Assembly: GCF_963921235.1 (NCBI RefSeq)
Contig: NC_086108.1
Coordinates: forward strand, 71,550,001 to 71,614,000
Direction: 5' to 3'
Source: Mobula hypostoma
Taxonomy: Eukaryota
DNA: 64,000 nt
Each line of letters opens with the position of its first letter. Position 1 is the stretch's first letter. The position numbers were made by a program, and so were the translations under genes. The notes beneath the pieces are model-generated. The model ran no database searches. It was not told the DNA's origin and was given only the letters and a program-made list of their open reading frames with translations. Below are positions 3,270 through 61,577 of the stretch, one piece after another.

Positions 3270-5357
3270 TTAGCATGAGGATTGTGCTGGGCAGATCATG
3301 CCTCATAAACCTGATCGAGCTTTTTGAAGAGATAATAGAGGAGCTCGATGAGGGTGAGGAAATGAATGCTATCTAAGTGGATCAAGTTTACATTCTTTCA
3401 TTGCTGTGCAGGTGCAAGAGTTCCAAAGATTCATAACTTAATCAAAATTCACATTACAGCAAATCACATTAGAGAAATAAGGTTGTTTAGATTTATGAAA
3501 ATACTTTTCCTAGGCAAATACAAATAACATAGCAATAATTCATTCGAATATACAGAAAATCCCTCTCAGTTATCTTAATGAAGGGGAGCTTGTGTACATT
3601 ACAATATGTAAATATAAGGATTTCTTGTAGACCATTTGACACGGAAGCCTGTGACTAGTGGTGTGCCATAGGGATCGGTGCTGGGTCCGTTGTTGTTTGT
3701 TATGAATATCAATTCTCTGGATGATAATGTGGATAACAGGATCAGCAAATTTGTGGATGACACCGAGATTGGGGGTGTAGTGGACAGTGAAGAAGGCTAT
3801 CACAGCTTGCAGAGGGATCTACATCAGCTGGAAAAATGGGCCGAAAAATGGCAGATGGAGTTTAATGCAGACAAGTGTGAGGTTTTGCACTTTGGTAGGA
3901 CTAACCAGGGTAGGTCTTACACAGTGAATGGTGAGGCACTGAATAGTGTGGTAGAACAAAAGGATCTGGGAACACTGGAACATAATTCATTGAAAGTGGC
4001 GTCACAGGTAGATAGGGTTGTAAAGAAAGTTTTTGGCAGATTGGCCTTCATAAATCAATATATTGAGTTTAGAAGATGGGATGTTATGTCGAAGTTGTAT
4101 AAGACGTTAGTGAGGCTTAATTTGGAGTATTATGTGAAGTTTTGGTCACCAACCTACAGGAAATAAGTAAACAATATTGAAAGAATGCAAAGAAAATTTA
4201 CAAGGATGTGGCCGGGTCTGGAGGGCCTGAGTTATAAGGGAAGGTTGAATAGGTCAGAACTGTATTCTTTAGAGTGTAAAAGATTAAGGAGAGATTTGAT
4301 AGAGGTATACAAAATTATGATAGGTGTAGATAGGGTAAATGCAAGCAGGCTTTTTCCACTGAGGTTGGGTAGGGTTACAAGAGGTCATAGGTTTTAGATT
4401 TAGATTATGAGGACACTCAGTCCTCGTTTATTGTCATTTAGTAATGCATGCATTAAGAAATGATACAATGTTCCTCCAGTATGATATCATAGAAACACAA
4501 GACAGACCAAGACTAAAACTGACAAAAACCACATAATTATAACATATAGTTACAACAGTGCAAAGCAATACCGTAATTTGATGAAGAGCAGACCATGGGC
4601 ACGGTAAAAAAATGTCTCAAAGTCCCGATAGCCCCATCATCTCAAGCAGATGGTAGAAGGAAGAAAAACTCTCCCTGCCATGAACTTCCAGCACCGCAAA
4701 CTTGCCGCTGCAGCACCCTGGAAGCACCCGACCACAGCTGACTCTGAGTCCGTCCGAAAACTTTGAGTCTCCGACCAGCCCTCCGACGCTGAGTACCGAA
4801 CACCATCTCTGCTGAGCGCTTTGACCCCGGCCCCGGCTGCCAAGCAACAGGCAAAGCCGAGGATTCAGGGCCTTCCCCTCCAGAGATTCTGGATCGCACA
4901 TTAGCAGCGGCAGCGAACAGGGATTTCAGAAGTTTCACCAGATGTTCCTCTGTGCTCTCACGTCTGCCCCCATCAAATCAGGATTGTGCACGGCATCCTG
5001 CTTGACATATAACAGATATTCATTCTGGAGTGGCAGCTGCGCGCTGTGTCGTGCCGCCATCTTCTCTTCTTAAGGGTGGAAATTGAGGTTTAAGAGGAAC
5101 ATGAGGGGTAACTTCTCCACTCAGAGGGTGGTTAGAATGTGGAACGAGCTACCAGCACAAGTGGTGCATGCGAACTTGATTTCAACATTTAAATGAAGTT
5201 TGGACAGGTGCAAGGATAGTAAGGATATGGAGGGCTATGGTCCCGATGCAGGTCGATGGGAGTGGGCAGTTTAACTGATTTCAGCATGAACTAGATGTGT
5301 TGAAGGGCCTGTTTCTGTGCTGGACTTTTCTATGACTCTGTGACTCCATGACTCTAC
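3270..5357 (+). mobile_element. 5'-truncated CR1 (HER1-type) LINE: RT C-terminal half and 3' UTR, interrupted at 4396-5069
   Basis: ORF 3678-4166 has LGPLLF..ISKFVDDT..LQRDL..WAEKWQMEFNADKC (CR1 RT). ORF 4185-4397 has QRKFTRM..LIEVYKI..TRGH. Tail (ctatgact)n. Confidence 0.92.
4396..5069 (-). mobile_element. ~660-bp non-autonomous retroelement with Rex1/Babar-like termini, copy 1 of 4
   Basis: Sense strand starts GAAGATGGCGGC and ends GACAATAAA-GAGGAC..GTCCTC-(AATCT)n. Closely similar to 15881-16560, 55128-55774 and 58508-59155. Confidence 0.85.
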
Positions 5358-15366: not shown

Positions 15367-15880
15367 ATGACTGCACTATCCAAACTCAAGTCAATATGGA
15401 GGAACAGCAGCATCATCATGAAGTACAAGATCAGACTCCTGCGTGCGTTGGTATTCTCCACTTTCCTGTACGCATGTGAGACATGGACCCTCACAGCAGA
15501 GCTACAGAGGAAGATACAGGCATTGGAAATGACATGCTATCACAACATCTTGGGCATCTCATACTTGGACCACATCACAAACCAGCAGGTCCACAAGACC
15601 ATCCAGCACCACATTGGCCACCATGAAGACCTTCTCACAACGGTGAAGCTGAGATGGTACGGCCACATAAGAAGATCCAGTGGTCTTGCAAAGACTGTTC
15701 TACAAGGAACTGTGGAGGGGGAAAGAAGAGGTAGACAGAGGAAAAGATGGATGGACAACATTAAAGAATGGACAGGGAAAACATTTGCGGTGACTCAGGC
15801 TCTGGGACACAACCGCGACAGATGGAACAGACTGGTGCAAAGCTTGTCATGATGGTGCCCTGACGACTCCAGCAGGAGTT
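15367..15880 (+). mobile_element. RTE-clade LINE 3' end
   Basis: ORF 15367-15852: KIRLLRALVFSTFLYACETWTL..LRWYGHI.RSSGLAKTVLQGTVEG.RRGRQRKRWMDNIKEWTG (RTE C-terminus). Inserted into a HER1 3' fragment that begins ~15140. Confidence 0.9.
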
Positions 15881-16560
15881 AGATTAGATTATGAGGACAC
15901 GCAGTCCTCTTTTATTGTCATTTAGTAATGCATGCATTAAGAAATGATACAATGTTCCTTCAGTATGATATCACAGAAACACAAGACAAACCAAGACTAA
16001 AAAAAACTGACAAAAACCACATAATTATAACATATAGTTACAACAGTGCAAAGCAATACTGTAATTTGATAAAGAGCAGACCATGGGCACGGTAAAAAAA
16101 AAGGTCTCAAAGTCTCTCGAAAGTCCTATCATCTCACGCAGACGGTAGAAGGAAGAAAAACTCTCCCTGCCATGAACCTCCAGCGCCGCAAGCTTGCCGA
16201 TGCAGCACCCTGGAAGCACCCGACCACAGCCGACTATTGAGTCCGTCTGAAAACTTTGAGCCTCCGATCAGCCCTCCGACACCGAGTACCGAGCACCATC
16301 TCTGCCGAGCGCTTCGACCCCGACCCCGGCAACAGGCAATAGGCAAAGCCGAGGATCTGGGGCCTTCCCGTCCGGAGATTCTCGATCGCACAGTAGCAGT
16401 GGCAGCAAAGCAGGCATTTCAGAAGTTTCTCCAGATGTTCCTCCGTGCTTCTCACATCTGTCTCCATCAAATCAGGATTGTGCACGGCCCCTATTTAACA
16501 AATACAATATCATTTCGGAGCGGCCGCGCGCGCTGCATCGTGCCGCCGTCTTCTCCTCCC
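15881..16560 (-). mobile_element. ~660-bp non-autonomous retroelement, copy 2 of 4
   Basis: High similarity to 4396-5069 over the full length. Confidence 0.88.
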
Positions 16561-18218: not shown

Positions 18219-21200
18219 TTCCAATGTAGGCATTGGAAAAAATGGTTTGATTTAACCTTTAATGGTCATATAGACAGTCTACATCCTTATTCTACATCCA
18301 AATTATGGTTTTTATAATAAGCCAGAAACTAATGAAAAATTAATATCACATTTATTTTAAATCTCCTTGGTTAATGTCTCAACATAGTTAAAATACATAT
18401 AGTTGTCTATTGACTAAACAGTCACATTGCCCATTTGCAGCACCTTATTTACTCAAAACAAAACATGATGACACCAGATGCTTCATTGACTAATTAGCTT
18501 AAAAATATCTTGAGAACTAAAGCAAAGCACAAAATTCTTTTCGAATGGAGCTCCATGCAATCGTATTTCTTGAGTTTCCCAAACTGAATTGGTAGGCATC
18601 CCTTCAATGTAATTCCACCAGAAACCAGAAAATCCATTTGGTAGTTCTAGTGGAGTGACAGTGGGAGACTCCTTTGAAATTTTCAACCAGAGTTTTCAAC
18701 TTTGTGCTCCTAAAGCAGCTGTATTCACATAAAAATCCTGTGATGCTGCTCCATTCCTCCAAACAAAGGAAAGATGCCTTCCGGGAACAGATGTGTTTTT
18801 AAAGCAAAATCTGTGTGCAGTCCTCAACATTTTCAGAAGATCATCAAGGCTAAAGACATGAGTCAAGAGTAATGATTACCCTATACGAAATAGTTTTATA
18901 AATGCAAGTAGATAGTAGGTGGAAGTGAACACCAGCAGGTCAGGAAGGCAAAGGCATTGGTGGGAGAAAGGTGAGGTTGATCAGGAACTGAACGAAGGAG
19001 ATGCAGTGTCTCCACATTGCAAACAAATTTGCTTTTTTTTTTACCAAAAGTGGACAAAACATGGTGTAGTCTGGAGCTCTTGAGAAACAAAACAAGAAAG
19101 TTCAGAGGATCTTTAATTTTGGTAAAATTACCTCGATAATGACCAACATTGACAAAATGATTAAAAAAATTGTAGTAAGATCATACCTTACATGCCTTCC
19201 TAATCCCACTAAGCAGCATCACTGATTCTACTTTTGGACACCACAAATATAAACATAACATTAACGACTCAGTACTCCCATTAGAAAAGAACTATGGACT
19301 GTTGTAACAATACTCTATGTATTTTTTTTTAAGGATGAGAACAAAGGGCTGGTGAATTTATACTGTAGAATGCTGTAGTATTTGATCACACAAATACTCT
19401 GCTCCCTAAATTCTTGGACATCATTCACAGAAACTAGACATGCTTTATTCATGTTCTGACTGCTGAAGAATAGGAGGCAAACAGCACTCTGAGACAAGGG
19501 CTTTTTAAAACTAGCTCCAGGTCTTTGTATAGAAATAGTGAAAGCATTATTTAACCATCCATCTCAACTACATGTATGGATTAAAAACAACGTGCTGTTG
19601 GACTACTCATCCAGCTGATGAAATTATAACATAGTGCTAATGGGATAACTCTCTTTGTTTTGAAGTTCAATACTTCACTGGCTTCCAATTGAACTATGCT
19701 GATAATAATCTGAACTGCCATCTAATTCACCCATGAGTATCATTCATAGATAGAGCATTATCGATTGTGTAGAGCTTCTGGTGCTCAGTGATAACTTCAG
19801 CTGGTCCAATGGTTTTCCATTCAATCATTTACATAGGCTCACATCAAACCAGTTCAATACAAGACCTAAGGGTTCAATTGTGCTACAATAAGAGCACAGG
19901 GAATTGAGCACAATGTAATTACACTGAAATCACTGTACAAAGACACAGGGATAGTTTGACCATAAGAGCATAACACATAGGAGCAGAATTAAGTCATTTG
20001 GCCCAATGAGTCTGCTCCGCCATTCCATCATGGCTGATTTATTATCCCTCCAATGCCATTTTCTACCTTCTCCCCATAACCTTTGATGCCCTGATTAATC
20101 AAGAAACTATCAATCTTTGCCTTAAGTATGCTCAATGAACTGGCTTGCACAGCTCTCTGTGGCAATAAATTCCACAGATTCACCACCCTCTGGTTAAAGA
20201 AAACTTCCCTTATCTCTGTTCTAAATGGATGTCTCTCTATTCTGAGAGTGTACCTTCTGGTCCTAGACTCTCCACTGTAGGAGACATCCTTTCCACATCC
20301 ACTCTATCTAGGCCTTTCAATATTCAATAGGTTTCAATGAGAACCTTCTCTTATTTTTCTAAACTCTAGAGAGTACAGACCCAGAGTCATCAAACGCTCC
20401 TCATCTGTTAGCCCCTCCATTCCTAGAATAATTTTTGTGAATCCCCTCTGAACCCTCTCCATTATCTCCACATCTTTTCTTAGATAAGGGGCCCAAGACT
20501 GCTTACAATACTCCAAGTGCAGTCAGACATTGCCTTATAAAGCCTTAGCATTACATCCCTGCTTTTATATTCTAGTCCTCTTGAAATGAACGTTAACATT
20601 ACATTTGTTTTTCTTACCACCGACTAAATCTGCAAGTTAAGTGCTAGGGAATCCTGCATGAAGACATTCAAGACCCTTTGCACCTCTGTCTTTTCAATTT
20701 TCTCCCCATTTGGAAAATAGACCATGGCTTTATTCCTTCTGCAAGGAATACATGACCATGCCCTTCCCTGCACTAAATTCCATCTGCCATCTAATTGCCC
20801 ATTCCCCCAATCTGCCTAAGACCCTGCTTCCTCAACACTACCTATCTCTTCATCTAGCTTCATAACACCCACAAACCTGGCCACAAAGCTATCAATTCCT
20901 TCATCCAAATCATTGACCTATAACGTGAAAAAAGCACTCCCAATACTGACCCCTGCAGAGCATCACTAGTCACAGGCAGCCAACCAGAAAAGGCCTCCTT
21001 TACTCCTACTCTTTGTCTCCTGCTCGTCAGCCAAACTACTATCCACGCTAGTACATTTTCTGTAATACTATGGGCTCTTATCTTGTTGAGCAGGCTCATG
21101 TATGGCACCTTGCCAAAGGCCTTCAGAAAATGCCAATAAACAATATTGGCTGACTCTCCTATGTCTATCCTGCCTGTTAATTCCTCAAAGAATTCCAACA

Positions 21201-23132
21201 GATTTGTCAAGCAAGATTTCCCCTTGAGAAAACCATGCTGACTTTGACCTATATGATCATGTGCCTCCAAGTACCCCAAAAGCTCATACTTAATAATAGA
21301 CTCTAACACCTTTCCAACCACTGAAGTCAGGCTAACTGGCCTATAATTTCTTTTCTTCTGCCTCTCTCACTTCTTAAAGAGTGGTGTGACACTTGCAATT
21401 TTCCACTTCTCTGGAACCAATCTAGAATCTAGTGATTCTTGAATGATTATCACTAAAGCCTCCATAACCTCTTTAGCTACTCCTTTCAGACCCCTGGGGT
21501 GTAGTCCATCTGGTCCAGGTGACTCATCTCCCTTCAGACTTTTCATCTTCCAAGCACTCCCGCCTTAGTAATAGCAATGACAATCACTTCTGCCCCCAGT
21601 CACTCTTGCACTTCTGGCATTCTGCTAGTGTCTTCCGTACTGAAGTCTGATGGAAAATACTTATTAAGTTATTCCTCCATTTCTTTGTCCCCATTACTAC
21701 CTCTCCAGCATTTTTTTCTAGCTGTCCAATATCCACTTTTGTTTACTTTTTATATATCCGAAAAAAACTTTCTGAATAATCTTTTATTGTATGTTATTGG
21801 ATAGCTTACCCACATATTTCATTTTTTCTCTGTGGCTTTTTTAACTGCCTTCTGTTGGCTTTTCAATGCTTCCCAGTCCTCTATCTTCCCATTAATTTTT
21901 TGCTGTATTATATGCCCTCTCTTTTGCTTTTTATGTTGTCTTTGATCGCCCTTGTCAGCCACCATTGCCTCATTCTTCCTTTAGAATACTTCTTCATCTT
22001 TGGGATGTATCTTTCCTGTGCCTTCTAAATTTCCCGCAGAAATACCAGCCGTCACTATTCTGGCATCATCCCTTCTTGTGTCCTCTTCCAATCAACTTTG
22101 GCCAGCTCCTCTCTCATGCCTCTGTAATTCTCTTTAGTCCGCTGTAATACTAAAACATCCAACTTTAGCTTCTCCTTCTCAAACTGCAGGGTGAATTCTC
22201 TCATATAGAGATCACTGTCTCCTAAGGGTTCTTTTACCTTAAGCTCACTAATCAAATCTGGTCATTACATAACACCCAGTCCAGAACTGCCATTCTCCTT
22301 GTGGAGTTAACCATAAACTGCTCCAAAAAGCCATCTCATAGGCATTCTACAAATTCCCTCCCTTGGGATCCAGCCTCAAGCCGATTTTCCCAGACTACCT
22401 ACATATTGAAATCCCTTATGATTATCGCAACTTTACCCTTTTTACATGCCTTTTTTAAAAATCTCCCATTGTAATCTATAGCCTGGCTACTATTTGGAGG
22501 CCTGTATATAACTCCCATCAGGTTCTTTTTACACTTGTAGTTTCTTAAATCTACCTATAAGGATTCTACATCATCCAATCCTATGCCATCTCCTTCTAAG
22601 GATTTGATTTCATTTTTTACTAACAGAGTCACCCTACCATCTCTGCCTACCTGCCTGTCCTTTTGATACAATGTGTAACCTTGGATCTTAAACTCCCAAC
22701 TGTGATCTTCTTTCAGCCACCACTCAGAAATGCCCATGACATCATCCATGCCAATCTCTACCTGCCCCTGTTATAATTTAACTTAGCCCACTCACTGTAA
22801 TTTTGCCCTAATATCTGCCTGTCCTTCCTCACAGTTAATCTATTTGTTTACCAACTGCCCCACGCTCAGCTCTAACACTTCAGTTCCTATCCCCTTGCCA
22901 AATAGGTTCAAGCCCTCCACTACATCTCTATCAAACCTGCCCACAAAGATATTGGTTCCCCCTCAGGTTCAGGTGTAACCTGTCCTTTTTTGTACAGGTT
23001 ACACCTTCCCCAAAAGAGATCCCAATGATCCACAAATCTGAAACCCTGCCCCTGCTCTAATTCTTCAGCTTTACATTCATCTGCCAAATCATCCTATTCT
23101 TACCCTCACTGGTGCATGGGACAGGCAAAAAT

Positions 23133-23729
23133 TAGATTAGATTCAACTCTTACTGTCATTGTGCCGAGTACAGATACAAAGCCAATGAAATGCAGTTAGC
23201 ATCTGACCAGAAATGCAAAGAATAGTGTTATTTACAAAATAACTGCAAATAAAAAGTAAGTGCTACAGCACACAAATATAAAAGTACTGAGACAGTACAA
23301 TATGGGTGTAATGCTGCTTAGCGCTGTGATGTGAGGTTCAGCAGGGTCACAGCCTCAGGGAAGAAGCTCTTCCTGAGCCTGCTGGTGTGGGAGCGGAGGC
23401 TCCTGTAGCGCCTACTGGATGGGAGGAGAGTAAAAAGTCCATGGTTAGGGTGAGATGCATCCTTGATAATGCTTTTCGCCCTGCCCAGGCAGCGTTTATG
23501 GTAGATGTTCTCAATAGTGGGCAATTGGGTGCCGATAATCCGCTGGGCAGTTTTCACCACACGCTGGAGTGCTTTGCGGTCCGATACGGGACAATTGCCA
23601 TACCACACTGAGATACAGTTGGTGAGTATGCTCTCAATGGTACAGCGGTAAAAGTCCGTCAGTATCCTGGGACAGAGCTGAGCTTTCTTGATGCTATGCA
23701 GGAAATAAAGGCACTGTTGCGCCTTTTTG
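23133..23729 (-). mobile_element. Rex1/Babar 3' fragment inserted in CR1 ORF1
   Basis: ORF 23318-23608 WYGNC..DRKALQRVVKTAQRIIG..LLPSSRRYRSL..SFFPEAV; (AATCT)n tail. Confidence 0.9.
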
Positions 23730-24582
23730 ATCCAGAGATTACTACCCTAGAGGTCCTGTTTTTCAGCTTTCGACCTGACTCGCTATATTCTCTATTCAGG
23801 ACCTTCACCCTTTTCCTACCCATGCCATTGGTACCAGTATGTACCACGACTTCTGGGTGTTCACCCTCCCACTTAAGAATGCCGTGGACCCAATCCAAGA
23901 CAGCCCTGACCCTGGCATCTGGGAGGGAACGTACCAGCAGGATGTCTCATTTACACCCACAGAATCTGCTTTCCATTCCTCTAACTATGGAAACCCCTCT
24001 CACTACTGCACTCCTCTTCTTCCTCCTTCCCTCCTGAGCCACAGGGCCAGAGACCTGATTGCTAAGGTTTCCCTCTAGTAGATCTTCACCCACAGACCAC
24101 AGGGCTGCCTATTCCCCTTCCCTTTCATGACAGTCACCCTGAAACCTGCCTTCTGCAACTTAGAGGTGACAACCTCCCTGTAGCTCTTATCTATCACCTC
24201 CACATTTTTCCTCATGAGCCGAACGTCGCCCAGCTGCAGCTCCGTTTCCTTAACACGGTCTCTAAGGAGCTGTGGCTTGGTGCACTTCACACAGATGTTA
24301 TCAGGGAGACTGGAAGCCTCCTAGAGTTCCCACATCTCACACAAAGATCATACCACTGCTTCTAAACACATTCTCAGTGCACCAGCTTGGTATTAACAAA
24401 AAAAAACTTACTAGAAACTTACTTAATATACTTACTTACTTACAACCTCCACCTGTGCTTTCTCAAACCTGTTCTTGCCTGTTGAGCCAAAGCCTGACTA
24501 CTTTAACACCGGCCCACTCTCACAATGGCCATTCCCACAATGGCCACTCCGCTTACACCTCACTTCTTTTTACTGTCTTTGT

Positions 24583-24848
24583 GCTGATTGCAGCCCGCCA
24601 AAAAGAGCCAAAACCACCGGAATTCTTTTTAGACCTCGCACTGCGTCCCAATGAATAACTCCTCGTGCCGATGGCAGCCCACTGAAAAGAGCCGGAAGCA
24701 CAGGTGTTCTTTTTAAACCTCGTGGTGCGTCACCAGCAATCGACCTCTTGCACTGATTTCAGCCCATCAAAAAGAGCCGAAAGCAATGGATCTCTTTTTA
24801 AACCTCATGATGGATCACCAACGAATGACCTTTGGCGCTGATTGTAGC
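24583..24848. repeat. Tandem array of ~85-bp units (3 plus a partial) at the CR1 5' end
   Basis: Units start at 24583, 24667, 24752 and 24837 (gctgattgcagccc..aaaagagcc..cttttaaacctc..). Confidence 0.85.
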
Positions 24849-33523: not shown

Positions 33524-34066
33524 TTGAATTCAATTGACTTTATTTCCTAAATCCTTCACATACACGAGGAATAAAAATCTTTACATGATGTCTCCATCTA
33601 AATGTTCAATGTGCAATTTATATTAATTTGTAATAAATAGTATGTACAACAGGACAGTCAGTATTACATAGAAATACAATTGTATCAGCATGAATTAAGC
33701 AGTCTAATGGCCTGGTGGAAGAAGCTGTCCTGGAGTCTGTGGGTCCAGGCTTTTATGCTGCATTACCATTTCCAGGATGGTAGCAGATGGAACAGTTTGT
33801 GGTTGGGGTGACTTTGGTCCCCAATGATCCTTTGGGCCCTTTTTACGCATCTGTCTCCGTAAATGTCCTGAATAGTGGGAAATTCACATCTACAGAGGTA
33901 CTGGGCTGTCCGCACCACTCTCTGCAGAGTCCTGCAATTGAGGGAAGTACAGTTCCCATACCAGCCAGTGATGCATCCAGTCAGGATGCTCTCAATTGTG
34001 CCCCTGTAGAAAGTCCTTAGGATTTGGGGAAATATGCCAAACTTCTTCAACCTTCTGAGGTGAAAG
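33524..34066 (-). mobile_element. Rex1/Babar 3' fragment
   Basis: ORF 33763-34074 FHLRRLKKFG..FYRGTIESILTGCITGWYGNC..LQRVVRTAQ; aataaagtcaattgaattcaa tail. Confidence 0.9.
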
Positions 34067-41520: not shown

Positions 41521-42319
41521 AAATCCTAGTGGGACTCTCACTGTTACATTCTCTGCTGTGGTTTTGTCACGATTGTTGAGTTGAATTGGAAGTGTTAAAT
41601 TAGAACATTCCAGAACTAAGCACACTGTAGTAGCAATATTAAAAATAACTGATAGAATGCAATTGCAATATTAAGGTAACATGAACTAAAATGAATTCAA
41701 CTTAGAACTATTCAAAATTAAATTTTGTTTGAGAATTGGATGTCAATATAAGCATTTTGGTGTAATTTACAGAATCACGTGACCATTTAAAAGATGAACA
41801 TGGTTCAATGAACATATATTCCAAATATCATTTCAGATGTTTGTTGTCCTGAGTGATTTAAATAATTAGCCAGAAGCATTCTACATAGGAAAGGAAAAAT
41901 CAGTCAAGTTACCCAGACCTGGACTCTGTGTAGCAACCTGCATTTCAATGGAAATAATGGCATTGTAAAATATTTCAAGGATTTTTATTGGGGCGTTGTC
42001 AAACAAAATTTGACGTCAAGCCACAAGGAGATATTACAGCATGAAATATTATCAAATAGGGAGCCAGCATGAGTAAGCAAATATATGTCTCTTGTACCCT
42101 GTCATTAACATTTCCAATGAATTGAAACTAGATCTAAAAATACATTAACAGCAGGTGCACATATGGACACGCTCCATCTGCTGAGGTGCAGTGATCGTTC
42201 ACAAGTCCTCCCAACAGCTGTGGCACTGTTGATGCTGATAATTTCCACTTTCTATTAATCACATCCTATTTCCATTTCCTGACTCTCTTCACCCATGAAT
42301 AATATGGGGTGAAGAGAAC

Positions 42320-42905
42320 TAAGGCTTTATTCGACATTGATTAGACCACAATTTGAGTATTGTGAGCTGTTTTGGGCCCCTTATCTTAGAAAAGACATGT
42401 TGGCATTGAAGGGGGTCCACAGGAGGTTCATGAGAATAATTCCGTGAATGAAAGGGTTAACGTATGAGGAGCATTTGATGGCTCTGGGCCTGTACACACT
42501 GCAGTTTAGAAGACTGAAGGGGAATCTCATTGAAACATATTGAATGTTGAAAGACCTAGATAGAGTGGGTGTGGAGAGGGTATTTCCCATAGTGGAGAAA
42601 TCTAGGACCAGAGGGCACAGCCTCAGAATAGAGGGACGTCCATTTAGAGTGCAGATGAGAAGGAATTTCTTTATTGAGTGGGTGGTGAACCTATGGAATT
42701 CATTCCACAAATGGAGTGGAGGCCAAGTCATTGGGTATATATTTAAAGTGGAGTTGGATAGTCTTTTGGTAAGTAAGGGCATCAAAGGTTATGGGGCGAA
42801 GGCAGGAGAATGGGGTGAAGAGGGATAATAAATCAGCCATGATGGAATGGTGGAGCAGATTCAATGGACCAAATGGCCTAATTTTGTCCTATGTCTATGG
42901 TCTTA
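42320..42905 (+). mobile_element. CR1/HER1 3' fragment
   Basis: LYSTLIRPQFEYC..WAPYLRKD; ORF 42544-42828 SRTRGHSLRIEG..RNFF..VVNLWNS. Confidence 0.9.
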
Positions 42906-45950: not shown

Positions 45951-46120
45951 GTTTTCTCAGAGTGGTGCAGACACCGAGCAATCTGTGGATGTGAACTTTC
46001 CACTATTTAGGACACTTACAGCAGCAGGTGCGTAAAGTGGGCCTGGAGGATCATCAGGGACTCCAGCCACCAAATAGTACCGCAGCATTAAGGCCATGAC
46101 CAACAGGCTCCAGGACAGCT

Positions 46121-47956
46121 TCTTTAACACGTTATCTCCTGGCTCCCTTGTTTTCCTTTCAATTAGTTTTCATGCTTTAGATTTACAAAACATAATGGTG
46201 ATGATGAGGAAGTTTTAAACAAACCTGAGACGTCTACCTGTTGAAGCGCAGTAAGATGTTTGAGTTTTAAAAAAGCAGCGAGGAACAGTTGAGTTAAAAA
46301 AAAGCAGTGCAGCATGTATCTCTGGAGGGGAGAAAGGGAATGCGTTTGAGTTTAATAAAAGACAGGAAATGGACAAAATTCAAGGGTTCATAAATAGTGA
46401 GTACTAGGTGATAATAATTATAAAAAAGAGTAGAAATGGCTGGCTACATCGGAAATATTGACGTGTTTGATTACATAACAGAAAACTGGATATTGTATAT
46501 TGAGTGAATCAGGCAGTAATTTAAAGCAAATGCAATAACCAATGGGAAGTGAGTGCCTAGTTTGCTGGGTGTATCTGACTTAAAGGAATGAAGTTTTTCA
46601 GAAGTTTGTCTGCTCTAACCAATCCAGCTGGAATGAATTTTGCTGATTTTGTGAAAATAATGCAGGAACATTTAGAATCAAAGTCATTGTTGGACTGCAG
46701 AACACTTTAGGATTCATAGGATCCTAACCTGAGATTTATGGCTAACACAAGAAGGCACAGTTTTAAGGTGCCTGGAAGTAGGTATAGAGGAGATGTTTGG
46801 GGTAAGTTTTTTACGCAGAGAGTGGTGAGTGTGTGGAATGGGCTGCTGGAAACAGTGGTGGAGGTGGATACAATAGGGTCTTTTAAGACTTGCCTGGATA
46901 GGTACATGGAGCTTAGAAGATTAGAGGGCTATGGGTGACCCTAGGTGATTTCTAAAGTAAGCACATGTTCGGCACAGCTTTGTGGGCTGAAGGGCCTGTA
47001 TTGTGCAGTAGGCTTTCTATGTTCTATGCTCTAAGCAAAAGGAAGGAGAGTCCATTTCAGTATATGTGGCTGAATTGAAGAAATTGTCTGAGCATTGTCA
47101 GTTCAGTAATGGGCTTATTGATGCTCTGAGAGATTGTTTAGTTTGTGGAATCTTGCAAGAAAGCATTCAAAAACAGCTCCTAACTGAAGCACAGCTTGCA
47201 TTTAAAAGAGTAGCTAAAATTGCTATATCAGTGAAAGCAGCAGACAGGGGCGCAATTCATTTGCAGTCAGGAGTGAAGGAGAGAGTGAACAAGATTGCAA
47301 TGTCTAAACAGGAACCTGCCTGGCTGATAAATTGTGTTACCATCGTGGTAAGGGCCCACATACACCAGTCCAATGCAGACTTAAAGGTGAATCTTGCAAC
47401 AAAGTAAGGCATATACAAAGAGCATGTCAGGCAGACAATAATAAACGGATTACACAGGAAAGAGAAAAAGATAAAAAAAAACAAGTTGCAGTTTCAAAAT
47501 AAGCATTAAACTGCATGCTGCTGATGAAAAATCTGATAGCGAGAGTGACTGGGGACTGGGCAGCATTAGGATTTACAATGTGAAAATGAGCAACAGGCAA
47601 GCAATATGGCTTACACCAGAAGTGAAAGGCAAATTAATTAAAATTGAATTGGATATTGGCTCAGCAGTTTCAGTCATTCCACAAAACAAGTTTGAACCAC
47701 ATTTCAAAGAGCCTGCAGATATCCAATTAAGAACATGTTAGAGAAAAGATAATACTGTGCAAATAACATTTGTAACAGTAAATACAACAACCAACAAGCC
47801 ACATTGTATGTAATAAAAACAGGAAGTCCAGCATTGTGGGGCCATGCGTGGCAGAGACAACTACAACTTGGTTGAAAATCCATCCACCATGTGCATGCCA
47901 CATCCCCTGTAATAGAGTCAATTGACAGCGAATTAAGAAAGGTATTGGATAATGCC
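46121..47956 (+). mobile_element. Decayed Gypsy LTR retrotransposon 5' half (LTR remnant, PBS, gag, protease)
   Basis: LTR-like end ...AAAACA at 46192 followed by PBS-like TGGTGATGA at 46196. Gag from ATG 46436 (MAGYIGNIDVFD..NWILYIE); QKEGESISVYVAELKKLSEHCQF..LRDCLVCGI; decayed zinc knuckles ~47335-47425; protease IWLTPEVKGKLIKIELDIGSAVSVIP at 47604-47681. Confidence 0.88.
46738..47034 (+). mobile_element. Young CR1/HER1 3' fragment inserted in Gypsy gag
   Basis: ANTRRHSFKV..FFTQRVVSVWNGL; (ttctatg)n tail. Closely related to the minus-strand copy at 59608-59840. Confidence 0.88.
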
Positions 47957-49470
47957 AAAACTATCTCCACAATGTACAACATGAATCGTGACCCAACAGA
48001 GGGTAAACGGGTGCTGGTGCCAATCAACCCTTGTGCCTCTGGTTGGAAATCATATTGGTCTGAGGATGGACCATGCTACTCAGAAGGATCAAGAAAGTGG
48101 CAAAAGTAGTGTTGTGACTAAAACAGGTTTTGAAGGTAACATAACTGAGAAGGTTCCTAAGATTGTCATAGCCAGGAGTGGTAGCGGGAAGCTCCCACTA
48201 CCTATAAGGTGTTCCAAATGGTGTGCGTCTCTGACAACCAATTCCAACTCTTGGCCTTCACGTGTGGCCTAGCTACTAGGCCCGGCGGAACTGTCTCTAC
48301 TGAAAAGAGAAGGGGCAAAGGCGGACCACTGGCGCCTCAAAATCAGTTGCTTCGGCAGGTTGGGCTTGTCAGCCTTTGACAGCAGCCCGGCTAGGAAAAG
48401 GAAAACTCTGATTTTAAACCTCCACTGGCTTGCGGCCATACCCACCCACGGGAAAGGCTTTGGGAGTAAACCTTGAGGATGAAATCCAGAGCTGTGGTCC
48501 CTAAGGTGGTTTGATGTTGTTTACAACTTCACTCTGGCAACCCCTGTGACTGACACTGCTGCCAAGCTGTATCGGTGCTTTCCCTTCCCTTGGACTACAT
48601 CAGTGATGTGGAGAGGGGGAACAGCCAGTTCTTCAAATCTTCCTGCCCAGGCTTGCAACCTGGAGAGGACACAGTCCACCAGAGGCGCAAATTCATGATC
48701 CCCTGGGATCGATGCCTCCCTGCTACCATCTGAGAAAGCTTCTAATACGTTAATGAGGCAGTTTCTGTGAAATGTGGCTTGGTTTTAAGCTAGAAGTGAG
48801 TTTAAGGAGGTTCAGAAATGTTTCAAGAGTTTGGCTTCTGTGAGTATAAAGAACCAGAATCTACTCTGTATGCATTAAGGTTATTGCATGAACTTCAGGT
48901 GGGAGACAAAAAGCTGCTTGTAAAAGTGGATGCAAAGTCCAAAGCCCAGCTGGATGAATGGAAGGCCAAAAAAAAGGAGTCAACGAAAACAGAGGATTCG
49001 TCAGATGATGTGCGATGAAGAAATGAAGAGGAGAGATCAGATCGTAAGGAAGGATTAATAAGAGACTACTCCAGTGAACTAAATGCACTTTCCCAAGATC
49101 AGGGTGCACGTCCTAGAAAGAAGAAAAAGGAGAAGAAAGAGGAGGATGACATAAGTGCTGTGGAAATGAAAGAGGACAAGCAAAACTAATTTCTCAAGAA
49201 ATTAGCAAATTCAGAGATACTCACAAAAAACTAGAAAGAGAAAATGGAAGGAGAGAAAAAGAAATTCAAGAATTTAAAAAGGAGATAAGAGATAGAGAGA
49301 AAGAATGTGAATGAGAAGGCATGAAAGAAAAATAATGAGAGTGAGAACATGAGCTAGATTGAGGCCATGATAGGGATCGATGAGAGAACCATGGATAAGG
49401 AATGGGAGTGGGACTGAGAAAGGGGTCGAGATCAGGATAAAGAGAAAGAAAGAATCTGGGACCGGGAGAG
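47957..49470 (+). pseudogene. RBM25: Processed (intronless) RBM25 pseudogene fragment: RRM and start of the RE/RD-rich region, split by an insertion at 48161-48729
   Basis: VLVP..VGNHIGLRMDH..TGFEGNITEK | SEKAS..KCGLVLS*K*V*GGS..FGFCEYKEPESTLYALRLLHELQVGDKKLLVKVDAKSKAQLDEWKAKKK..RDYSSELNA..RKKKKEKKE..EISKFRDTHKKLE matches vertebrate RBM25. Stops at 48791, 48797 and 48803, plus several frameshifts; no introns. Confidence 0.93.
48161..48729 (+). mobile_element. Non-coding retroelement, probably a bipartite non-autonomous RTE derivative
   Basis: Flanked by a 16-bp duplication of RBM25 sequence (CTGAGAAGGTTCCTAA / CTGAGAAAGCTTCTAA, 13/16 identical). Contains RTE 5' UTR-like ggaaaactctgattttaaacctcc and an RTE-like 3' end ggcgcaaattcatgatc...gatgcct. 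Confidence 0.65.
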
Positions 49471-50224
49471 AAGCTCTTGAACTCAGTGCCCTGACTAATG
49501 AAGGCCAACACACTAAACACCTTCTTAACAACCTTATCAACTTGTGTGACAGCCTTGAAGGATCAATGGATTTGCACTCTAGCTAACTTATCTAAGTTTT
49601 TGATCTTTGTGATGCAACTCCTTATTTAGCACAGTTTTTTAAAAAAAAGTTCAATGTTATATGGCATTCTACATGCTCTAAGATGACTATTTTTCATACA
49701 TGGCTAAGTCAAACAAATAAGGGTTTTATATACAATTACTAAGGTAGAAATGAATCTTAAATATAGTTATCCACACATATATTTCTGACAAATGCTTGAA
49801 TTTTCCTAACTGGCTGTGGTATAAATCTTAAATGTAAAAGATGAGCAATAATGGCAATTATATCACCTTTAATATCTAGTCACATTATCCTAGTTTCACT
49901 ATTTTGGCGAACTGTCCATTTACCTTTTGTGGTGATCTGCCCAAATCATTTCAATTACAGGTACCTGTATTATAGAATCATATAGTTATGTACTGTTGAA
50001 ACTGACCCTTTGGCCCAACTTACCCACGATGAAGAAAATGTCCATCTGAGCTAGTCCCACTTGCCTGCATTTGGCCCATATGCATCTAATCCTCTTTTAC
50101 ACATGAACCTGTCCAAATATTCTAAATATGTTGAAAATGTACCTGCTTTTGCAGTTTCCTTGCACAGTTCATATCACCTTCTGTGTAAAAAAAAAGTTGT
50201 CCTTCAGATCCATTTTAAACCTTT

Positions 50225-51230: not shown

Positions 51231-51611
51231 GGATTCTCTTACGCATTAATGCCAAGGAATGTCCTCCGTGTCTTCTAATTTTAGACTCCCCTACCTAGCA
51301 TCTCACACAACAAAACAGCCGAAAGCTCCTTCCAGGGAAATTATCAGATAGAGATTTGACCAGGCCACATAACAAAATGTTAGAGTATAAATTCCAAAGT
51401 GTGATCATGGGAGGGGGTTTTAATGAGGATCTTAAGGAAGGAAAGAGGAAAGCACGATGAAGATTTATAGAGGAAGTTCTAAACCCTGGAATCTTGGCAA
51501 CAGAAGGCCTGACCACAAATGTTGGAGTGATTGTAGTTGATATCGTTAAATAGTTGATTGGTTTTGTTGTCCTATCCTATCCAGGTGAATCTAAATAAAG
51601 AATGATAAACA

Positions 51612-54689: not shown

Positions 54690-56170
54690 GTAAAACTGAG
54701 GCCCCCTCCTCCTTACCATCCTCCAGCCTAATGTACGTTCTGTAGAAAATAAAACTGAAGACCTCAGAGCGAAGATTGCAGTACCAGAGTTGACCAGAGT
54801 CACAAGGTATGCCCTTCCATTCGTTGTAGGGGACTTCAGTCAAGCCACCTTGAAGAAGTCTCTGACAAACTGCGACCAGCATGTCACCCGAAGCCCACAC
54901 TTTAGCAAGTCTGATCACTTAGCTGTACTTCTACTCTGGGCCTACAGGCAGATACTGAGGACCACAGCACCATCGGGAAGGATCATGAAGGAATGATCAA
55001 GGCAGGTGGAGGAGCACTTTGAATCAGTGAACTGGACAATACTTAGGGATTCATCTTCGGATTTAATAAATATACCGCAGTCATCACCGACTTCATCAAG
55101 GCCTGTGTTGGTGACTGTGTGCTTTTCAGTTCAGCTCTCTCTTATTGGCATTTAGAAATGCAGGCATTAAAAAATGATACAACGTTCCTCCAGAAAGATA
55201 TCACAAGAAAACACAGGACAAACCAAGACTAAAACTGACAAAACCACATAATTATAACATATAGTTACAACAGTGTAAAGCAATACCATAATTTGATAAA
55301 GAGCAGACCATGGGCATGGTAAAAAAAAGTCTCAAAGTCCCGATAGACTCATCATCCCACGCAGGCGGTAGAAAGGAGAAACTGTCCCCGCCATGAACCT
55401 CCAAGCGCCGCCAACTCGCTGATGCAGCACCATTGGAAGCACCCGACCACAATGGACTCTGAGTCCGTCCGAAAACTTCGAGCCTCCGACCAGCCCCTCC
55501 GACACAGCCTCTCCGAGCGCTTCGACCCCGCCCCGGCCGCCGAGCAACAAACAAAGCCAAGGACTCGGGGCCTTCTCCTCCGGAGATTCAGGACCACACA
55601 GTTGCAGCAGCAGTGAAGCAGGCATTTCAGAAGTATCACCAGATGTTCCTCCGTGCTTTCACGTCTGTCTCCATCAAATCAGGATTATGCACGGCACCCT
55701 ACTTGGCAAATAACAGATATCACCTCTGCAGTGGCCGCTGCGAGCTGCGTCGTGCCGCCATTTCCTGTCCTCCTTTTGAGAATATACTCGGCATTCCCAA
55801 ACCTGAGGTCATGGATGAACTAGAAGATTTGCAGTCTTCTGAGGGCTGGATCTATGACATTCAAGCCAGTGATCCAGCACACTGCAAGAAGTCCTGGTAC
55901 GACCCATAGAAGGCTATCATAAGAGCAAAAAGCAGCTCCAAGTGAAGATGGAGATATAATTGGATGCATGTCAACTGTGGTAGGGTTTGCCTGCTATTAC
56001 TTCCTACAAAGTGAAATCTAACGTCATAAATGTCTGTGATACTTCACTCCCAGATGGACTCAGTGCTTTTTATGCACACTTGGATTATACCTGTGTAAAT
56101 GCCTGCAGCATCTGGAAACTCTGTGATATCTGTCTCAGAGGCCAACAGCAGAACATCTTTCAAGAGACTG
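54690..56170 (+). mobile_element. Internally deleted Rex1/Babar 5' region (AP endonuclease), split by the 660-bp element
   Basis: NVRSVENK; VGDFSQATLK..QHVT..FSKSDHLAVLL (ORF 54790-54996); AITSYK..SLPDGLSAFYAH. Confidence 0.75.
55128..55774 (-). mobile_element. ~660-bp non-autonomous retroelement, copy 3 of 4 (variant 3' tail)
   Basis: Colinear with copies 1 and 2 but ends ...gccaataagagagagctgaactgaa instead of the GAGGAC hairpin and (AATCT)n. Confidence 0.85.
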
Positions 56171-57148
56171 CGAGGAGTCAGGCCAGAAACAACAATAATC
56201 CTTCTGGATTTTGAGCTTTGCTGTAATATATTCCAGTGGCTTTGCTGCATATGTGAAAGATTTGATATTACATTTTGCTGTAACCCAACCTCCTTTATCC
56301 TAATATTGACATTTGTGCTTGAAGAAGTCTGGGCTTTGAGCTCTAGAATTTCTTCCTGTGATCTCCATTTCTTCATTCTCCCCTTTCCTTTAAGACACTC
56401 TTTGAAGCTGATTTCTTTAACTAACTTTTGTCGAATTCCTTAATGTTGCCTTTGTTGCTCAGAGCAAACTTTCAGTTGAGACCATAAGAACATGAGTCAT
56501 AGGAGCAGAATTAGGCCATTCAGCCCATCATATCTAGTCCAACATTTCATCATGGCTGATTTGTTTTCCTTTCCATCCCATTCTCCAATGACAATGAACT
56601 CCACAGATTCACCATCCACGGGCTAAAGAAATTCCTCCTTGTCTCTGTTTTAAATGGACATCCCTCTATTCTGAGGCTGGTACTAGACTCCTCCACTATA
56701 GGAAACGTCCTCTCCACATCCACTCTATTTAGGACTTTCAACTTCCAATAGGTTTCAATGAGATTTCCTCCCCCCATCCATTCTTCTAAATTCTATTGGG
56801 TACAGGACTCAGAGCTATCAATTGCTCCTCATATGACAAACTTTTCATTCTGGGAATCGTTCTCATGAATGTCCTCTGAACCCTTTCCAATGTCAGCACA
56901 TCCTTTCTTATTTAAGGAGCCCAAAACTGCTCACAGTACTCCAAGTGAGGCTTCACCCGTGCCTTATAAAGCCTCAGTGTTACCTCCTTGCCTTTATATT
57001 CAAGTCCTCTCGAAATGAATGCGAGCGTTGTATCTGCCTTTATCACCACCGATCCCACTAGCAAGTTACCCTTTAGGGAATCTTGCAGAAGGACTTCCCA
57101 GGTCCCTTTGCACCTCAGATTTTTGAACTTTCTCCCTGCTTAGAAAAT

Positions 57149-57470
57149 GCTTACTTACTGCTCGTTGTGCCGCTGGTGCTTAGGGCAGCAATGAAGGTCC
57201 TCCACCGCTGTCTGTATAGAAGGATAGTTCATTGCTGTTTCCATCACAATTGTTCTTTGACCAGTCTAGGTTGTTAGTCCTGAGCTGAACCCCCAAACCT
57301 GGAGGACCAGTGGACCACTCTTAGTCTGGCCTCTATCCTTCGACCTGTTTTTCAGGGATGTCCACCAAGAGCCAAAGCACAAGGCCCTGTCTCCAGTCAA
57401 ATAGCTCTCCTGGTCATTGAGGCATCAAGACTCCAAAACCTACGACAAAGTTGTGGTCCCCTTGGAGGGT
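57149..57470 (-). mobile_element. 322-bp bipartite non-autonomous RTE derivative (5' UTR fused to 3' end)
   Basis: Perfect 9-bp TSD TTAGAAAAT (57140-57148, 57471-57479). Sense 5' end has the RTE/Rex3-like motif ACTTTGTCGTAGGTTTTGGAG..CCTCAATGA..GAGCTAT; 3' end tggaggaccttcattgctgccct..(GTAA)n. Confidence 0.8.
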
Positions 57471-58507
57471 TTAGAAAATAGTCAATGCTTTTACTCCTTC
57501 TACCAAAGTGTGTGATAATATATTTCCCGATACGGTGTCCATCTGCCACTTCTTTACCCATTCTCCTGATCTGTCTAAATCCTATTGAAGCCTCCCTGCT
57601 TCCTCAATACTACCTGCTCATTAACATATTTTCCTACCATCCGCAAACTTGGCCACAAAACCATCACTTCTGTCACCCATTGACACACAACATAAAAAGA
57701 AGCAGTCCCAACTCTGACCCTTCAGCACAGCACTAATCACAGGCAGTTAATCAGGAAAGGCTCCCTTTATTCATACTATTTGCCTTCTGCCAATCAGCTA
57801 ATGCTCTATCTATGTTAGTATCTTTCCTGTAATACCATGGACTCTTATCTTGTTAAACAGCCTCATATGTGGTATCTTGTGAAAGGCCTTCTGAGAATCC
57901 AAGTACACAACATCCACAGATTCTCCTTTGTCTATTCTGTTTGTTATTTCCGCAAAGAATTCCAGCAAATTAGTCAGGCAAGATTTTCCCTGATGGAAAC
58001 CATGCTGACTTTGGTGTGCCTTCAAGTACCCTGAAACCATATTCTTAACAATCAACTCCAACGTCTTCCCAAGCACTGAGGCCAGGCTAACCGGCCTATA
58101 ATTTCATTTCCTTCTCCCTCACCCCATGAAGAGTGGAGTGACATTTGCAATTTTCCAATCCTCTGGAATGATGCCGGAATCTATTGATTTTTGAAAGATC
58201 ATTACTAATATCTCCACATTTTTTCAGCTACCTTTTTCAGAACCCTGGGTTGGAGTCTATCTGGTCCAGGTGACCTATCTCTCTACTGACCTTTCAGTTT
58301 CCGAAGCACTTTCTCCCTATCTAATAGCAACTGCACTTCTGCTGCCTGGCACTCCCAAACTTTCAGCATAATGCTAATTTCTTCCACAGTTAATATTGAT
58401 GCAAAATACTTAATCAGTTCATCCGCCATTTCATTGTCCCCCATTACTACCCCTCTCTCCAGCGTCATTTCCAGTGGTCAAATATCTATACTCACCATTA
58501 TATATTT

Positions 58508-59155
58508 CCGCCGCTCCGAAATGATATCGTATTTGTGAAGTAGGATGCCGTGCACAATCCTGATCTGATGGAGACAGCCGTGAGAAGCACGGAGGAACAT
58601 CTGGAGAAACTTCTGAAATGCCTGCTTTGCTGCCGCTGCTATTGTGCAATCGAGAATCTCCGGAAGGGAAGGCCCCAAATCCTCGGCTTTGCCTGTTGCC
58701 GGAGCCGGGGCCGGGGTCGAAGCGCTCGGCAGAGGTGATGCTCGGTGCTCGGTGTTGGAGGGCTGGTCGGAGGCTCAAAGTTTTCGGACGGACTCAAGAG
58801 TTGGCTGTGGTCAGGTGCTTCCAGGGTGCTGCATCGGCAAGTTTGCAGCGCTGGAAGCTCATGGCAGGGAGAGTTTTTCTTCCTTCTACTGTCTGCGTGA
58901 GATGATGGGACTTTCGAGAGACTTTGAGACTTTTTTTTACCGTGCCCATGGTCTGTTCTTTATCAAATTATGGTATTGCTTTGCACTGTTGTAACTATAC
59001 GTTATAATTATGTGTTTTTTTTTCAGTTTTTCAGTCTTGGTTTGTCTCGTGTTTCTGTGATATCATTCTGGAGGAACATTGTATCATTTCTTAATGCATA
59101 CATTACTAAATGACAATAAAAGAGGACTGCGTGTCCTCATAATCTAATCTAATCT
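58508..59155 (+). mobile_element. ~660-bp non-autonomous retroelement, copy 4 of 4 (slightly 5'-truncated)
   Basis: Reverse complement of copies 1 and 2; ends gacaataaaagaggactgcgtgtcctcat(AATCT)3. Confidence 0.88.
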
Positions 59156-59607
59156 ATATCTGAGAAAAAAACTTTTGGTATCCTATTTGATATTAATGGC
59201 TAGCTTACCATCATATTTCATCTTTTTTTCCCCTATGGCTTTTTTAGTTTCCTTCTGTTGGGTTTAAAAAGTTCCTCAATCCTCTAACTTCCCACTAACT
59301 TTTGTTCTATGACATACTCGCGCTTTTGCTTCTATGTTGCTTTGAATTTCCCTGTCAGCAATGGTTGCATCATTCTGCTTTTAGAGTACTTCTTCTTCTT
59401 TGGGATGTATCTATCCTGCACCTTTTGAATTGCTCACAGAATCTCCAGCCATTGCTGCACTGCTGTCATCCCTGCTGGTGTTTCCTTCCAATCAACTTTG
59501 GCCAAGTCCTCTCTCATGGCTTTGTATTCCCTTTACTCCACAATAATACTGAAACATTTGACTTTAGCTTGTTCTTCTCAATTTGCAGAGTGAATTCTAT
59601 CATATTA

Positions 59608-59840
59608 TAGAAACATAGAAAACCTACAGCACAATACAGGCCCTTCGGCCCACAAAGCTGTGCCGAACATGTCCTTACCTTAGAACTACCTAGGCTTTAC
59701 CCATAGCCCTCTATTTTTCTAAGCTCCATGTATCCATCCAAGAGTCTCTTAAAAGACCCTATCATTTCCGCCTCCACCACTGCCGCCAGCAGCCTATTCC
59801 ATGCACTCACAAATCTCTGCGTTAAAAAACTTATCCCTGA
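59608..59840 (-). mobile_element. Young CR1/HER1 3' fragment nested in the CR1 endonuclease region
   Basis: tagaaacatagaaaacctacagcacaatacaggcccttcggcccac, the reverse complement of the 46738-47034 tail. Confidence 0.85.
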
Positions 59841-61457
59841 CGTCGATCACTGTCTCCTAAGGGTTCCTTTACCTTAAGCTCCCTAATCAAATCTGGTTCA
59901 TCATAAAACACACAATCCAGAATTGCCTTTCCCCTAATGGGTTCAACCACAAACTGGTCTAGAAAACATCTTGTGGGTATTCTAAAAATTCTCTCTCTTG
60001 GGATCCAGCACCAACCTAATTTTCCCAATCTACCTGTATATTGAAGCTCCCATGACTAACATAACATTGCCTTTTTGACATGCTTTTTCTATCTCCCATT
60101 GTAATTTGTGGCCCACATCCTGGCTGCTACATTTTCCGATCCCTTGTCTTGTCTTTCTACGGATTTGATTTCATTTTTTTACCAACAAAAATATTTCATT
60201 CCTCTGCCTGTCCTATTAATACAATTTGTAACCTTGTACATTAAGCTCCCAACTATAATCTTCTGTCAGCCACAACTCAACTCAATGTTGTCTACAACAT
60301 TATACCTGTCAATTTCTAACTACAAGATCATCTACCTTATTTTATATACTGTATGCATCCCATTATACCACATTCACTCCTGTATTCATCACCCTTTTTG
60401 ATTGTGTCCCCCTTTTATACTGCAACTCATCCCACTGACTGCAATTTGCCCTTTCATTTGCCTGTCCTTCCTGACCATCTCAGTATACACTGCCTCTACT
60501 TGTAAACCAACACCCCTATCCTCAGTGCTACCACTCCAGTTCCCAAATTAATTTAAACCCTCCCCAGTAGTTGTATCATACCTACCCACAAGAAGGTTGG
60601 TCCCCTTGGGTTCAGGTGTAACCTGTCCCTTTTGTACAGATCATACCTTCCCTAGAAGTGATCCTAATGGTCCAGAAATCTAAAGCCCTGCCCCCTGCAC
60701 CAGTACCTCGGCCATGCATTCATCTGACAAATCATCCTATTCTGGAGGTCCTGCATTTCAGCTTTCTACCTAACTCCCTATATTCTTCTATCAGGACCTC
60801 CTCGCTTTTCCTACCTATGTCACTGGTGCCAATATGAAGCAAGACTTTTGACTGCTCCCCCTCCCCCGTGAGAATGTTGTGGACCCAATCTGAGATGAAC
60901 ATGACCCTGGCACCTGGGAGGCAGCACTCTGTCCAGGTGTCACTATCACATCCACAGAATCTTGTGCCTGCTCCTCTGACTATGGAATCCCCTATCACTA
61001 CTGCAGTGCTCGCCTCACCCCTTCCTATCTGACCCACAGTGCCAGAGAGCTGGTTGCTGCAGTTCCCGCCTGCTAGGTCACTCCCCTCAACAGTATCCAA
61101 AATGGTACTGTATACTAATACTTGATATTAGGTGGAACGGGCACAGGGCTACTCTGTACTGGCTACCCATTTCCATTCCCTCTATTTATCTGCCTCCTGA
61201 AACCTAGGGGTGATCCTGTAGATCCTCTCTATCATCTCCTCAGTCTCCTATATGAGCTGAAGGTCATCGAGCTGTAGCTCCATTTCCTAAATATGTTCTC
61301 TGAGAAGCTGCAGCATGGCGCACCTTGGGCAGAGTGGGTATTCAGGAGGCTTGAGGTCTCCCACATTTCCCACATCTCACTGAAAGAACACAACATAACC
61401 CCTGGAGCCATTCTCACTGCTCTAACTATGCACTAACAGATAAAGAATGAAGAACAA

Positions 61458-61577
61458 AGAAGAAGAAGAAGAAGAAGAAGAAGAAGAAGAAGAAGAAAGA
61501 AGAAGAAGAAGAAGAAGAAGAAGAAGAAGAAGAAGAAGAAGAAGAAGAAGAAGAAGAAGAAGGAGAAGGAGAAGAAA
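61458..61577 (+). repeat. (GAA)n microsatellite, ~120 bp of pure purine
   Basis: AGA/GAA repeats with one extra A near 61497 and GGAGAA variants at the end. Confidence 0.98.

Follow-up and report, generated by a model that had tools for sequence, protein, structure and literature searches.

An old, truncated Gypsy-RBM25 chimera that is likely a member of a large LTR-retrotransposon family

How did a fragment of mRNA for a host splicing factor, RBM25, come to lie where a Gypsy retrotransposon would carry pol, and was the resulting unit ever mobile? The question is raised by a locus in the 64-kb stretch of DNA analyzed here (the window). The original prediction, made from the sequence alone, held that RBM25 cDNA without introns is joined in the same orientation to Gypsy gag-protease, and both homology searches and intron positions bore this out. 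It also held that no target site duplication (TSD) or poly(A) is visible; neither was found for the element, nor does the window contain its pol or a second LTR. The earlier description of the parts was right for gag, protease, and RBM25 and had missed a 576-nt insertion in RBM25 as well as a CR1 piece in gag. An assembly artifact was ruled out, as a contig of sequencing run X1 spans the junction and organisms B and C carry parts of the locus. We conclude that the Gypsy-RBM25 chimera at 46121-49470 is real, old, dead, and truncated and that it likely belongs to a large Gypsy-RBM25 family.

To define the Gypsy part, tblastn was performed with P0159 (KAL6460959.1), a teleost LTR-retrotransposon (Ty3/Gypsy) polyprotein from Metynnis hypsauchen, which matched 46436-47956 on the plus strand with E values of 4e-34 and 4e-29. 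As in P0159, where gag, knuckle, and protease form one polyprotein, the order from 46436 to ~47960 is gag, zinc knuckle, aspartic protease, and linker towards reverse transcriptase (RT), with stops and frameshifts; the window pieces are 40-64% identical to it. The Ty3/Gypsy arrangement of a gag with a CCHC knuckle followed by an aspartic protease was therefore recovered, in the form of decayed matches to P0159. Residues 292-384 of P0159 themselves gave sub-cutoff Pfam aspartyl-protease matches, the gag piece had 4,496 relatives at an E value of ≤0.001, and a protein search with the protease piece gave no match among 51 candidates, which is weak evidence. One gag relative, P0202, continues into pol in the order RT, RNase H, integrase. 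When 12 long gag relatives, some of which contain these domains, were used as queries, nothing beyond chance was found for RT, RNase H, or integrase in the 64 kb outside 46436-47965. No pol is present among the internal ORFs in the 64 kb, and the 3′ side of the element is missing. RBM25 sits where P0159 continues towards RT.

Upstream of gag, an LTR end and a primer binding site (PBS) had also been predicted. Gag and protease stand by the matches to P0159, while the LTR and PBS are putative and assigned by position, and the PBS-like site may represent a CpG-decayed Gypsy tRNA primer site. The LTR shrinks to a remnant of ≤~70 nt because 45959-46124, which was considered as LTR sequence and rejected, matches another repeat at 33719-33921. 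No second LTR was found in the 64-kb window.

Homology to RBM25 begins at 47954-47957 on the same strand as Gypsy and ends at ~49474, amounting to ~936 nt in total. The best protein match, at 83%, was to shark RBM25 from Heptranchias perlo and points to a cartilaginous-fish host, and the 3′ part matched Pfam RRM_1 with an E value of 0.007, below the cutoff. Six intron positions of the vertebrate RBM25 loci L001, L002, and L005 (before VLVP, KCG, and AFGF, after the NG downstream of the RRM, after KKED, and after DTHK) are crossed in the window without an intron, the fourth being blurred by a short deletion, and two exons that lie 2.5 kb apart in L005 adjoin at 49143. Thus, the RBM25 part is a copy of host mRNA without introns, as is found in LTR-mediated retrocopies. 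The copy is dead because it contains stops and frameshifts and is split by the 576-nt insertion. A search of metagenome, viral, and prokaryote collections with the RBM25 protein P0122 returned no chimeric locus and only intron-bearing RBM25 genes.

The 54 nt between the last Gypsy residues, LDNA, and the VLVP motif are also RBM25; the upstream exon contributes its final codons, which are followed by an in-frame segment of 16 codons (48 nt, 47963-48010). This segment occurs in P0001, P0121, and P0122, which are H. perlo models and a Logan protein, and was absent from the bony-vertebrate RBM25 proteins compared. It is likely a cartilaginous-fish alternative exon, and comparison of the proteins suggests that the captured mRNA was an alternatively spliced isoform. 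P0001 and P0122 carry four further residues ahead of the VLVP exon.

Comparison codon by codon located the switch between the two parents. The window can be matched to P0159 as far as 47956 and to P0122 starting at 47954, such that the Ala codon suits both, and a Val lies three codons past the Ala in both parents. Within the 12 nt after the Ala codon, up to 10 could match RBM25 and 6 could match P0159, as deduced from the proteins rather than from parental DNA. The switch point is consistent with short microhomology as compared at the protein level. The Gypsy frame enters the RBM25 frame without a shift, as would be expected in one-third of random joins. An X1 contig (47878-48258) crosses the junction with 0 differences, X1 possibly being the source sample, and an organism B contig (47927-48218) has 5 differences and 27 to 30 letters on the Gypsy side, which is less than the 31 letters required for bridging.

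An ORF reading through the junction into the VLVP motif had been predicted, and it does join the two parts, but immediately past VLVP it departs from the frame of RBM25, and a stop closely precedes it. From stop to stop, the frame runs from 47876 to 48109, and the ORF at 47891-48109 was rejected as a gene on these grounds and regarded as a remnant. A protein search with the junction peptide gave no match among three candidates, which is weak evidence, the junction pattern was absent from the metagenome contigs searched, and the ESM Atlas returned only short, uninformative clusters.

Table 1. Parts of the chimeric locus and of later insertions, in window coordinates
Feature	Position	Strand	Basis
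Probable 3′ remnant of 5′ LTR, ≤~70 nt	46125..46195	+	Position only, flanked by the PBS-like site and by an unrelated repeat whose end is at 46124
PBS-like site, TGG start, 240 nt before gag ATG	46196..46211	+	Sequence
Decayed gag with zinc-knuckle remnant, stops, and frameshifts	46436..47500	+	tblastn, P0159 residues 1-86 and 98-247, ≤64% identity
Later CR1 LINE 3′-end insertion in gag	~46720..47030	+	85% identical to 59607-59837
Aspartic protease, decayed, with D-I-G at 47652-47660, followed by linker towards RT	47500..47956	+	tblastn, P0159 residues 237-416
In-frame switch from Gypsy to RBM25; both parents align at the Ala codon	47954..47956	+	Codon by codon versus P0159 and P0122
RBM25 cDNA, 5′ part: upstream-exon end, shark-type segment of 48 nt (47963-48010), and VLVP exon as far as the RRM start	47954..48153	+	tblastn, P0121/P0122, E values of 9e-12 and 6e-13; intron positions from L001
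High-copy repeat insertion in RBM25, 576 nt	48154..48729		Flanked by 9-nt duplication (48145-48153, 48730-48738)
RBM25 cDNA, 3′ part: RRM and start of RE/RD-rich region, stops, and frameshifts	48730..49474	+	tblastn, 71-73% to P0001/P0122, E values of 1e-46 to 1e-48; spliced junctions
Internal CR1 ORF2 fragment without its own 3′ end, likely deletion breakpoint	49473..49580 (right end approximate)	-	73% over 67 nt to copy at 4003-4069

Two insertions struck the element after it had formed. The 576-nt repeat within RBM25 is flanked by copies of the 9-nt duplication that are identical at 8 of 9 positions, has no Rfam match, and was found at very high depth in all three related organisms compared, with a summed depth of up to 114,254 in X1. 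The insertion in gag, which we take to be CR1 from its motifs, is 65% identical to the 3′ end of an RT-bearing copy at 3672-5340.

At the 3′ end, a CR1 fragment had been predicted to start at ~49474. The start was confirmed at 49472-49473, where loose contig ends were seen in X1, X5, and X9, and the fragment could be further described as an internal one on the minus strand. Insertion of a LINE starts from its 3′ end, and the other CR1 copy of the window runs ~550 nt past the matching point (4003-4069) to its tail. As the piece lacks a 3′ end on the side that faces RBM25, a deletion is implied, and the same deletion likely removed the 3′ tail and 3′ LTR of the element and cut the adjacent CR1. 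Downstream of RBM25, the locus shows no further Gypsy segment, no polypurine tract, and no 3′ LTR, and the CR1 fragment is followed by DNA that is single copy beyond 49600 in X1, X5, and X9. The features expected of a whole element are paired LTRs, a PBS, a polypurine tract, and a TSD, and the locus has only the probable LTR remnant and the PBS-like site. An LTR-mediated retrocopy would also return to element sequence and a 3′ LTR; the locus does not, and therefore, taken alone, it is regarded as the probable truncated remnant of such a retrocopy and not as a proven one.

The marks of a processed pseudogene made by a LINE were likewise not seen. The RBM25 copy stops in the middle of the coding sequence at ~49474 rather than in a LINE-type 3′ end with poly(A), and no poly(A) was found at the RBM25 end, the original 3′ end having likely been deleted. 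The nearest run of A residues, A8 at 49641, lies beyond the CR1 piece and was rejected as a retrocopy tail. No convincing TSD was found around the retrocopy, the one 9-nt match, at 51247, being at chance level, and no pol resumes downstream. In organism C, the border between CR1 and flank is present in a contig that reaches only ~10 letters into RBM25 at the breakpoint, and a second contig (48628-48853) contains the right border of the 576-nt insertion. Because organism C has both borders, we conclude that the copy and its 576-nt insertion are older than the split of organisms A and C.

To determine whether the chimera is repeated elsewhere, 4 of 24 listed runs (X1, X5, X9, and X22) were compared with 47550-50000 at 80% likeness, with X10 to X20, which had small shares, left out. 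X1, X5, and X9 are DNA runs of three related organisms, X22 is guessed to be RNA, and findings on loose contig ends and joints are those among the matches listed, beside which there were 4,368 further loose-end and 504 further joint matches. Divergence from the window was 1.0% in organism B and 7.3% in organism C. Locus-specific contigs had depths of 16 to 23 in X1, 7 to 8.5 in X5, and ~7 in X9, and single-copy contigs had depths of ~19, 8, and 7, respectively. Summed depth was 49,305, 30,822, and 21,069 over an RRM bin (48862-48943) and 59,166, 35,087, and 27,055 over a Gypsy protease bin, giving RRM-to-protease ratios of 0.83, 0.88, and 0.78. Summed depth is not true copy number; divided by single-copy depth, it gives at most 2,600 to 3,900 copies, and further divided by 31, on the worst-case assumption that every contig is a single 31-letter word, at least roughly 84 to 124. 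Intronless paralogous contigs that differ by 10-15% were found at about single-copy depth in all three organisms.

Evidence that other loci share the 5′ junction came from contigs at the switch point. Position 47963 was G in 47, 46, and 47 contigs of the three organisms. Because depth in X1 falls from 1,103 at 47963 to 259 at 47979, most of these contigs have their anchor in Gypsy and extend from there into sequence of the RBM25 type; they have a mean depth of 18 each, which is single copy. Even so, G at 47963 would also be expected from intact Gypsy, P0159 having Val there. Moreover, a joint between 47969 and 48766 was seen in two X22 contigs, each side being supported by at least 37 letters. 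Parental RBM25 mRNA could match at most 24 of 37 letters at this joint (65%, below the 80% filter) and the present locus carries the insertion, and thus the two contigs likely derive from other chimeric loci. Splicing of the locus was rejected as the source of the joint, which has the ends CA..TC. A further joint, 48058 to 48766, also lacks the 576-nt insertion. No loose contig ends were found at the junction among the matches listed. Depth over 47960-48123 was only ~950 in X1, which may be due to local divergence, and the Gypsy sites 47740 and 47760 also dropped to 459 to 500. One X22 contig (depth of 29) runs from 49109, in RBM25, back to 47855, in the part of Gypsy protease that precedes the switch point, and is possibly a rearranged or tandem copy.

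Depth, Gypsy-anchored contigs, a joint seen in two contigs of one run, and a single-copy right flank together indicate, indirectly, that many copies share one junction. The suggestion that the locus was once part of a mobile gag-protease-RBM25 unit is supported, as RBM25 is as deep as Gypsy in three organisms and the 5′ junction is apparently shared by other loci. By the same evidence, the earlier caveat that a LINE-mediated insertion and a deletion at this locus alone could have produced the join is now unlikely. We think it probable that the decayed Gypsy gag-protease and spliced RBM25 cDNA are one copy of a nonautonomous LTR family whose founder arose by template switching. The mRNA origin, the shared orientation, and the in-frame join just after protease are observed; template switching as the founding event is inferred, this copy having lost its 3′ LTR along with the 3′ switch point and microhomology having been read at the protein level. 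Reverse transcriptase would have switched between Gypsy RNA and a copackaged, alternatively spliced RBM25 mRNA at a short similar sequence, thereby replacing the RT-RNase H-integrase core with RBM25, and the chimeric copies would have spread in trans by the enzymes of intact Gypsy. Amplification before the split of organisms A and C is supported indirectly. Insertions into the gag and RBM25 parts followed, and a deletion would then have taken the 3′ tail and 3′ LTR along with the 3′ part of the neighboring antisense CR1.

Other histories could account for parts of this evidence. Short microhomology is also found at the 5′ ends of LINE insertions, LINE fragments are abundant in the window (RT matches in 5 of 59 ORFs scanned), and deletions have struck this copy. 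Thus, the founder could have been made in DNA, by a LINE-made RBM25 retrocopy landing in a genomic Gypsy that then lost pol and poly(A) by deletion and spread as a nonautonomous LTR element. We consider such a founder unlikely, as it needs two extra events where a double template switch is one step and as replacement of internal ORFs is the pattern in all 15 fly cases in the available text of Tan et al. (PMC5131818). A smaller chance is given to RBM25 cDNA having been an independent high-copy repeat that was moved by LINE enzymes and became joined to Gypsy at this locus only. Coverage is indeed deepest at 48780-49107, far above the junction bins, and no 3′ Gypsy sequence is present at the locus, but the 46 to 47 Gypsy-anchored contigs per organism at 47963, the 47969-48766 joint, the in-frame join, and depths of RBM25 and Gypsy that covary in three organisms make this improbable. 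That the extra copies reflect segmental duplication of one chimeric locus is scarcely credible: no evidence for it was found, it is largely refuted on the right flank, where 49600-50000 has single-copy depth in X1, X5, and X9, and the joints from 47969 and 48058 to 48766 indicate that the 576-nt insertion is missing from other copies.

We compared the chimera with known systems. Capture of mRNA by an LTR element is an already known mechanism (Tan et al. 2016, Genome Res, PMC5131818), and it is the scale here that looks unusual. As described in the available text of that work, animal LTR-mediated retrocopies were remobilized as nonautonomous elements at few sites, and some switch points lie near exon junctions. 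The RBM25 chimera resembles them in being a doubly truncated internal mRNA that is co-oriented with its element; it may likewise replace internal ORFs, no poly(A) or TSD was found around this copy, and its family was probably able to move again. It differs in number, with 18 sites for nine fly retrocopies there, whereas the estimate for the three organisms here is ~100 to several thousand copies; in host, since the species named in that text include no cartilaginous fish; and in that the copy here is without the 3′ LTR side. In crocodilian endogenous retroviruses (ERVs), the available text reports KIT-ligand in CrocERV29 (nine copies) and nectin3 in CrocERV31 (six copies) (PMC4299795). There too, a vertebrate LTR retroelement captured host mRNA that was copied along, and the capture predates species splits. 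Those are ERVs that kept pol and have intact captured ORFs under purifying selection, however, whereas the Gypsy element here apparently lost pol and has its cargo in frame behind protease in a decayed copy. Drosophila telomeric retrotransposons likewise carry host gene fragments, which are said in the available text to help suppress host silencing (PMC13534243). They set a precedent for cargo that benefits a retroelement, but they are non-LTR elements with silencing-pathway genes, and a benefit from RBM25 is only hypothetical. No description of a Gypsy-RBM25 family was found in the literature searched, which took in few subscription papers.

One way in which RBM25 could have served the element is if the in-frame fusion of Gag-protease to the RBM25 RRM was itself useful. 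The RRM, or RNA directed against the host splicing factor, might have aided packaging or escape from splicing or silencing, such that in a cartilaginous-fish lineage a chimera without pol became about as numerous as the Gypsy from which it arose. This proposal is doubtful; if correct, a host splicing-factor domain would have been domesticated by a transposon. What is new from the locus is the in-frame junction, the evidence that the captured isoform was an alternatively spliced one of shark type, and an age that exceeds a 7% sequence split at the least. The captured-mRNA cases compared reach few to ~10 copies in the texts available, and a captured piece of RBM25, a conserved splicing factor, whose amplification roughly equaled that of its carrier would lie at the large-scale end, in a vertebrate. 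With hundreds of dated replicates, the family would allow selection on cargo in retrotransposition to be examined, and it can mislead gene annotation by creating many false RBM25-like loci.

Across the window, no host exons were recognized, and 59 longer ORFs compared with Pfam gave only retroelement-type matches, a comparison that short exons would escape. A search of the whole 64 kb against Rfam gave no match at the gathering score and one chance match (E value of 0.97). A single RT-bearing LINE is represented by two long and decayed copies, ~75% alike, at 19958-24404 and 56480-61444, with a further inverted piece at 42318-42905. Four copies of a 650- to 690-nt repeat, 82-92% alike, are nested in older LINE fragments at 4394-5069, 15879-16558, 55131-55776, and 58510-59152. 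Finally, the window contains ~3 copies of an 85-nt tandem repeat at 24584-24848 and an (AAG)44 microsatellite at 61443-61576.
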